NCBI GenBank assembly: GCA_964016885.1
Contig: OZ024750.1
Location: 18,166,001 to 18,230,000 of the forward strand
Source: Eledone cirrhosa
Taxonomy: Eukaryota
Direction: 5' to 3'
Length of the DNA stretch: 64,000 bases
Part shown: in pieces, positions 16,001 to 16,549 of the stretch
Numbering within the stretch: the stretch's first letter is position 1
Layout of the letters: the number at the start of each line of letters is the position of its first letter
Program-made: the position numbers and the translations under genes
The notes under the pieces: model-generated
Database searches by the model: none
What the model saw: only the letters and a program-made list of their open reading frames with translations
Told to the model about the DNA's origin: nothing

Positions 16001-16549
16001 ATATATATGTGAAGATAGACATAGAATATTCGAAAATATTCTGTATGTTTATAATAAACATTTTGGAGACCTAATCGCTATAGAATAGAATACGTCACGT
16101 ATTACAATTAGATTCTCGATAAAAGCAAGGGAAGTAACCTACGCGTTTCATTCTCATTAGAAATCTTCAGGATTACATATCCAGTGCTTTTATCGAGAAT
16201 GACACAGCTAGAGACTTATAGAATACTTAGCTGTGTACAGGAACTGGTTTGAAAGAGCGGTTGCCGGTCCGGCAGAAATTAGAAATTGGATTAAATGCTC
16301 TGAAATAGCGATATATATGTGAAGATAGACATAGAATATTCGAAAATATTCTGTATGTTTATAATAAACATTTTGAAGACCTAATCGCTATAAAATTGCT
16401 TTTATCGAGAATCTAATTGTAATACGTGACGTATTCTATTCTATAGCGATTAGGTCTTCAAAATGTTTATTATAAACATACAGAATATTTTCGAATATTC
16501 TATGTCTATCTTCACATATATATCGCTATTTCAGAGCATTTAATCCAAT
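16001..16549 (-). mobile_element. Retrozyme-like element: 310-bp monomer, partial tandem copy and inverted copy, all inside (TA)n
   Basis: 16001-16082 repeats at 16311-16392 (period 310). 16396-16549 is an inverted copy spanning the monomer junction. Contains a hammerhead. Confidence 0.75.
16112..16200 (-). ncRNA. Type I hammerhead ribozyme (family B) with extended stem I
   Basis: Minus strand reads gtaatc-CTGAAGA-tttctaatgagaat-GAAA-CGCG-TA-ggttac (16176 to 16134). Stem I is extended by a perfect 16-bp helix attctcgataaaagca/tgcttttatcgagaat after an internal loop. Confidence 0.88.

Follow-up and report, generated by a model that had tools for sequence, protein, structure and literature searches.

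The element at positions 16001–16549 of the window (the whole 64,000-nucleotide stretch of Eledone cirrhosa DNA analysed here) is, judged by its sequence, a short insertion of a very young and recently active family of non-LTR retrozymes. Retrozymes are a known kind of element, and the anatomy of the insertions appears to tie this family to two-site priming of the Penelope type and favours a circular template. Probably, both strands of a (TA)n target are nicked by an enzyme of the Penelope type, a reverse transcriptase with endonuclease, which then rolls round one predicted 310-base circle from two start sites, with multimeric templates and later local duplication as minority routes within the same reading. 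The approximately 2,000 near-identical natural insertions obey strict rules, in that start site A stands opposite start site B, each insertion carries one haplotype and the cleavage site bears no scar, and it is these rules that favour circle-templated two-site priming. Retrozyme spread and the tandem and inverted, one-tailed insertions of Penelope elements are both called open in the available text of three sources (bioRxiv 10.64898/2026.07.22.740005, PMC8557442, PMC7229834).

Structure and classification of the window copy

One whole 310-base unit lies on the minus strand at 16001–16310 (unit position U1 = 16310); it had 201 matches at 40 scored places in the genome, and identity was 96–100 % among the 150 matches listed. 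The 310-bp period and about 1.26 tandem copies reported in the first-pass annotation were recovered as arm A (16001–16392, minus strand), which comprises U229–U310 plus the whole unit and has as its terminus start site A (U299–310, 16001–16012, minus strand), where it merges into the (TA)n target. A head-to-head junction with an insert of 3 bases (16393–16395, no strand assigned) leads to arm B (16396–16549, plus strand), the inverted copy that had been described as reading through the monomer junction. This arm of 0.50 unit runs from U183 to U26 across the unit boundary, lacks a hammerhead and terminates at start site B (U24–26, 16547–16549, plus strand), about 35 bases past A; the same site lies within the unit at 16287–16285. 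The target flanks are (TA)n/(CA)n microsatellite, at 15316–16008 on the left (no strand assigned) and at 16548–16723 on the right, and a target duplication is unreadable in pure TA.

Covariation and folding identified two covarying hairpins directly 5′ of site A (16019–16061, minus strand), which are a candidate recognition signal for the reverse transcriptase. Sequence comparison showed a conserved block 3′ of site A, surrounding site B (16255–16310, minus strand), which includes a 13-base box common to older lineages; this box served as the query for finding those lineages. A hairpin whose loop carries a conserved TATA-like motif lies at 16202–16236 (minus strand; folding and comparison).

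The earlier assignment to metazoan non-LTR retrozymes is borne out by a short, low-GC tandem unit (310 bp; 107 of 310 bases G+C in the dominant unit) with a type I hammerhead, no protein and no LTR. No complex reading frame of at least 90 codons was found over the element. Arrays reach at least 24 units and consist of nothing but unit repeats between (TA)n tracts, with the LTR/PBS/PPT layout absent. The element also differs from an autonomous Penelope-like element (PLE), as an ORF with reverse transcriptase (RT) and GIY-YIG domains is absent, the period is 310 bp and there is no internal region. It resembles metazoan non-LTR retrozymes, which have a low-GC non-coding tandem unit of 150–450 bp with one type I hammerhead, and in particular axolotl Rtz_353 (HHR_Amex2), which shares the 2-bp stem III and the U-U at the base of stem II (PMC7229834). 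As in metazoan retrozymes, including those of mussel, there are thousands of copies and PLEs in the same genome (PMC7229834). The paired fixed ends and the head-to-head arms in (TA)n are unlike the retrozymes in the available text of that source, in whose main text the words 'inverted' and 'microsatellite' do not occur, and the circle of the present family is predicted from DNA. Retrozyme circles have been demonstrated by northern blot in coral, mussel and axolotl by Cervera and de la Pena (2020), who proposed rolling reverse transcription to tandem cDNA by PLEs (PMC7229834). In a literature search that covered listings and main texts and few subscription journals, neither paired start sites nor haplotypes of single insertions nor ADAR marks were found to be described for retrozymes.

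Hammerhead and structural selection

The hammerhead is complete, as had been annotated, with a predicted minus-strand cut at 16140/16139 (U171/172), and a type I core supported by covariation was modelled at 16176–16134 (minus strand). Stem I pairs 16176–16171 with 16139–16134 (6 bp), the core comprises 16170–16164 and 16149–16146, stem II spans 16163–16150 with U-U at its base, and stem III has 2 bp and a palindromic loop. The reported 16-bp extension of stem I is present as an outer helix (16200–16185 with 16127–16112, minus strand), which contains the recurrent A>G sites U120, U121 and U191, but an internal loop divides it from the 6-bp stem I. The further hairpins of the first-pass annotation exist as well, although they were quoted from the plus strand whereas the hammerhead RNA is the minus strand. 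An Rfam search gave no hammerhead here at gathering score and none among 32 matches at E≤10.

When folded as a circle, as had been suggested, the unit folds better than shuffled sequences (z=−4.4, compared with −4.2 for the linear form), and the hammerhead fold lies 3.6 kcal/mol above the circular minimum. Covariation of the hammerhead and the stems extends over the older sibling lineages: both sides change in 23 of 37 named pairs across 17 sequences, far above shuffled and slid controls, with counts that are inflated by relatedness. The core pair is C3-G8 in seven of these sequences and U3-A8 in nine. In the young family, changes that break a pair or the core accounted for 3 of 31 array-wide changes but 31 of 81 single-unit changes (P=0.003). 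Single-unit changes at first seemed too frequent in the core (12/131), but this was a junction alignment artefact at locus L266; after its removal the catalytic core held 3 of 85.

Genome-wide, core position G5 is altered in 15 units at 14 loci, affecting single units at ten loci and the sole unit, or one of two covering units, at three; at L316 a dead core (G5A) is present in all three hammerheads of one arm. The pattern of G5 changes suggests that catalysis is favoured, though not demonstrably obligatory. The window copy has a single hammerhead, so release of a circle by the window locus itself is impossible and any circle would derive from sister loci, of which 84 of 98 contain at least two same-strand hammerhead cores.

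Family size, lineages and sampling

In the 3.0-Gb assembly, 16,616 exact matches to a 23-mer of the unit were counted and none to its reversed control, so the repeat exceeds chance; the other genomic copies and multimers on which the first-pass annotation had made its case depend are present in thousands. The first 100 matches represent 18 loci over 36 Mb. The junction pattern of site B with TA occurs 1,119 times and matches 10 of those 18 loci, which gives a rough estimate of 2,000 insertions. The family recently added about 5 Mb, or 0.17 % of the assembly. Contigs from a public run, which may be of the assembled sample, cover the element very deeply, indicating that it is no assembly artefact. 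Three runs guessed to be RNA and labelled with other organisms gave no coverage of the element, a result that has no bearing on its expression. A sibling family with a unit of about 320 bases gave 1,858 motif matches, and further lineages, together with an old lineage of about 330 bases at 73–83 % identity, are all collinear with the unit. Over at least four waves the lineage has persisted in non-coding form.

The loci examined comprised the window with 37 best-hit loci, a positional set of 18 loci and one more, 80 regions drawn from the first 100 B ends listed, and 18 variant loci; the positional samples were confined to contig C1. The lineage of the window is the rarer one (4 of the first 100 B ends) and made up the first best-hit sample, in which no A>G bias was seen and the evidence leaned against monomer circles. 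The positional samples reversed this picture on both points.

Insertion ends and targets suggest two start sites

Two head-to-head arms were present in 42 of 57 loci that had not been selected by their ends, while the remaining 15 were one-armed or had a very short second arm. The inverted copy that had been singled out as noteworthy is real but, at this frequency, is the rule and not a curiosity, and would represent a second primed arm. Site A stood opposite site B in all 39 classifiable two-armed loci of this set, the other three being disrupted or incompletely covered. In the sample selected by B ends, the far end was A in 68 of 69 complete insertions and never B; the exception was internally rearranged. 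The 3′ ends at site A fell at U296–310 on the hammerhead strand, a spread that includes subfamily differences and TA overlap, and those at site B fell at U26 in 76 of 82 cases. Freely permuted ends were ruled out, as 3′ ends lie at two fixed sites and only inner ends vary. The earlier proposal of a permuted insertion from circular or multimeric RNA was thus correct in that the arrays point to such a template, but not with regard to permutation of the 3′ ends.

A/T-only flanks adjoin 89 of 97 ends. Target duplications of 12–14 bp were detected in 3 of 80 insertions (25 with impure flanks) compared with a control mean of 0.04; loci with readable duplications are L164, L166 and L174, and also L033 and L048. 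Such lengths agree with those of non-LTR retrozymes, whose target duplications, where present, exceed 4 bp. Where arms were joined without an insert, microhomology of at least 2 bases was found in 40 of 56 cases, compared with 18 % for random joins, and short inserts occur at 30 of 86 arm junctions. The two arms have mean lengths of 3.9 and 4.8 units, and these lengths are weakly correlated (rho=0.33, P=0.002, n=81); two smaller sets gave no significant correlation (n=14, P=0.13; n=27, negative).

An inverted 5′-truncated arm, a tail of 30–40 bp at one end and a (TA)n bias, all known from Penelope elements, were found in this family, and by analogy the ends with A opposite B match the 'tail' of Penelope elements and, with it, a pair of RT start sites. 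The comparison is with PLEs that carry an endonuclease, namely Poseidon PAc (PMC11167929), Neptune, Hydra and Naiad (PMC8557442) and the Penelope element of A. vaga (PMC3846280). As far as these are described in the available text, features in common are partial tandem copies with an inverted 5′-truncated copy, a one-ended tail of 30–40 bp, AT-rich or (TA)n targets, duplications of about 8–14 bp and a hammerhead near the ends. Unlike them, the retrozyme has no ORF and the entire element is 310 bases long. For PAc, Frangieh et al. placed the tail between two internal RT start sites (PMC11167929). The start site in vitro was the same for both strands (PMC11167929), whereas the strands of the retrozyme essentially always use different sites.

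A different origin of the second arm would be single priming followed by fold-back self-copying of the cDNA, with the endonuclease trimming the second end at the other site. A shared haplotype follows trivially from this scheme, and palindromic junctions have been interpreted as self-priming (PMC3846280). Variants common to inner units at L043, L067, L199 and L208 suggest that short fold-back may help to close gaps. However, the median difference in length between the arms is 2.3 units and goes in both directions (35 vs 44 of 81), which disfavours fold-back alone, the insertion at L217 is not constructible from either arm alone, and Frangieh et al. found both target strands to be cut and extended in vitro (PMC11167929). 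Fold-back as the general origin of the second arm is therefore considered very improbable, and priming at two sites is preferred.

Two loci showed unusual junctions. L032 and L043 are unlinked and differ in haplotype and array length but share an identical inversion junction (U117/U227). At L320 (1355–3652), one arm starts exactly at the base that follows the cleavage site, and A259T is present in the first unit of this arm; a core change at this locus repeats at a four-unit distance.

Evidence for a circular template

The two arms agreed in haplotype in 72 of the 75 insertions that were informative, compared with a chance of 0.11 for two random loci. Among insertions with at least three units, 69 of 75 had no partial variant, yet 28 haplotypes were found in total. 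Eighteen variants were private to one sampled insertion and 17 of these were present in both arms, in up to 24 of 24 units. No scars or new indels were found in the 766 units that span the cleavage site, and inner ends near this site were at the expected number (4 of 172 vs 3.9), which indicates that the template was continuous across the cut. Run-off or jumping at the cleavage site was ruled out by the same counts. In the zone of 225 units covered by both arms there were 50 single-unit changes, all unshared (changes close to the ends of arms, and the loci L266 and L268, were left out of this count). With long array transcripts as templates, about 28 shared changes would be expected by arithmetic, and two in-register cases were seen. 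A259T is not private to one insertion and was found in 46 units at five loci, namely uniform arrays of 24, 9 and 9 units, a locus with 3 units that belongs to another subfamily, and a lone unit. A monomer circle that is copied repeatedly would best explain the uniformity, the haplotypes and the unshared changes.

Two-site Penelope priming could instead use mostly uncut, linear, multimeric array transcripts, with circles as a by-product. This equally predicts a scar-free cleavage site, and it draws support from the dispensability of the hammerhead for insertion in vitro (PMC11167929) and from Xenopus dimers, of which 8 of 9 failed to cleave (bioRxiv 10.64898/2026.07.22.740005). At L054, L217 and L235 the two arms carry matching, in-register differences between units, so a multi-unit template is needed at these loci. 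A linear template is unlikely for most insertions, however, since it offers no route for a new change into every unit of both arms, as required by the 28 uniform haplotypes, and since shared single-unit changes are few. The 13-unit A259T arm at L240 also has no equally long source in the assembly (others have 9, 5 and 4 units); the arrays that served as sources may have been cleaner at the time of copying, or may be missing from the assembly. The array at L208 reflects two templates or a change mid-way.

Uniformity would also arise if Penelope-type insertions of one or two units were later enlarged by unequal exchange or slippage, as Li et al. (2026) have modelled. Several arrays contain block duplications with a period of 2–8 units, those at L034, L046, L051, L058, L176 and L221 being long or older, and C116T repeats at a spacing of 3–5 units within arrays, so the uniformity could be partly local. 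As a general explanation this is improbable, because 14 of 41 insertions with at least eight units lack single-unit changes altogether, length and uniformity are found in both arms alike, and the seeds themselves exceed one unit. Arm lengths are moreover smooth over unit boundaries, with 20 sub-unit arms out of 162 where an exponential distribution would give 33.

Further observations count against the preferred reading of rolling synthesis on a hammerhead-derived circle. One is that A259T occurs at several loci, and another that the loci covered held no autonomous element with the same ends. A third is the arm at L316 with G5A in all three hammerheads. A fourth is a sibling unit at L093–L095 (G000:C1:56078538–56078878), which is cut to 163 bases, has no hammerhead and is present as three tandem copies.

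A>G changes in the helices

Array-wide changes in helices were almost all A>G. They affected 7 of 45 paired adenosines (8 of 46 when counting U173, which has unclear polarity and a 5′ G) compared with 0 of 45 unpaired adenosines (P=0.012), and array-wide C>T was found at 0 of 28 paired cytidines (P=0.04 vs paired A>G). Single-unit changes showed the opposite trend (3 to 9, P=0.003). The recurrent A>G sites U120, U137 and U191 have a 5′ U and occur in several backgrounds. Genome-wide, A120G was present in 812 units, the first 100 of which were all in runs, while A118G, in the same helix but with a 5′ G, was found in one unit and C116T in 15 units, none adjacent; U120 was chosen after its A>G had been noticed and each control is one site. 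At L313, an array-wide A>G lies at a loop position.

ADAR favours a 5′ U or A neighbour and avoids a 5′ G (bioRxiv 2020.01.19.911685). The changes have the properties of an ADAR template, being A>G on the RNA strand, in helices and next to a 5′ U or A, with U173 as the exception. On balance, this pattern leans slightly towards ADAR editing of the circle helices, captured by reverse transcription into the DNA of all units. The alternative is expansion of a few source lineages combined with template switching. If the A>G changes are due to ADAR editing, this would constitute a route for RNA edits to become heritable DNA.

Proposed mechanism and relation to known systems

In the proposed mechanism, an array would be transcribed, tandem hammerheads would excise monomers and a host ligase would close these into circles, by analogy with other animals. 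A weak palindromic stem III would be expected to permit cleavage in multimers while leaving monomer circles intact (PMC4209133). A PLE protein, probably a dimer, would then nick the target strands 12–14 bases apart, a distance given by the duplications seen. One subunit would start at A and the other at B, about 35 bases on, using the same RNA; the end pattern and the shared haplotype are observed, and priming at these sites would account for them. Both subunits would roll for about four units on average, after which the cDNA ends would be joined head-to-head via the observed 2–6 bases of microhomology or short insert. A minority of insertions would derive from multi-unit RNAs, long arrays would duplicate blocks locally afterwards, and A-to-I edits in circle helices would probably be copied into all units. 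A more speculative extension, which we regard as possible though somewhat less likely than not, is that the subunits of an RT dimer, locked to different sites, roll one circle simultaneously, that ADAR edits enter every unit of a germline array and that editing by the host drives the sequence evolution of a viroid-like selfish RNA, which would have lasted for several waves without a coding parent.

Li, Clavereau and Pollet described retrozymes as non-autonomous PLE derivatives, based on co-occurrence and pLTR similarity, and proposed local tandem growth (bioRxiv 10.64898/2026.07.22.740005). The present reading likewise has PLE machinery as the mobiliser but differs in that the anatomy of the insertions suggests that multimers arise during integration itself. 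Non-autonomous Chlamys elements such as MRC1 are similar in being non-coding, multicopy, head-to-tail insertions moved by a PLE (PMC8557442). According to the available text of the same source, Chlamys mostly lack hammerheads and resemble the 3′ end of their partner, whereas the retrozyme showed no similarity to a partner.

Search for the mobilising Penelope element

The genome contains PLE frames, reaching 938 aa, that encode RT and GIY-YIG domains. Long frames of several families, spanning 460–1,096 codons from stop to stop, were found at L177, L178, L179, L218, L264 and L273 and are candidates for the mobilising enzyme; those at L218 and L264 represent a second frame type without Pfam hits. 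The named relatives of one PLE protein from the genome were mostly molluscan. No autonomous PLE with the ends of the element was found in about 1.4 Mb of loci, including 50 GIY-YIG loci, a small coverage of the PLEs in which 150 of 10,595 GIY-YIG candidates were scored and 30 loci and 20 ten-kb regions were examined. The variant-motif, GIY-YIG, oldest-lineage and inner-flank searches gave no ORF-linked copy of the lineage, the last two covering 30 oldest-lineage loci and the inner flanks of 19 one-armed loci. Chimeric joins lead to several different PLE families. In the inner flanks of L050, L051, L060 and L170, one-armed copies are fused directly to other PLE families, at their ends or coding parts, by either template switching or later deletion.

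Other repeats

The genome is very rich in hammerhead-bearing repeats, and the flanks of L031–L097 contain distinct hammerhead motifs by the dozen, which belong to many families. In the window, a second hammerhead family with a similar stem II and a long stem III forms a short (TA)n insertion at 5736–5800, and two-armed copies of it are present at L069, L186 and L193. A two-armed, inverted hammerhead element of a different family lies in (TA)n at approximately 50950–51270, with its core at 51079. A tandem family with a period of about 560 bp, also in (TA)n, carries the same 13-base box as the retrozyme at L107 and L110. The window further contains a 25-bp minisatellite (101 copies, 98 %) and a 60-bp array, at 7019–9539 and 1–582, respectively, and a cluster of dispersed SINE-like repeats at 17975–18765, which presumably resemble octopod repeats.
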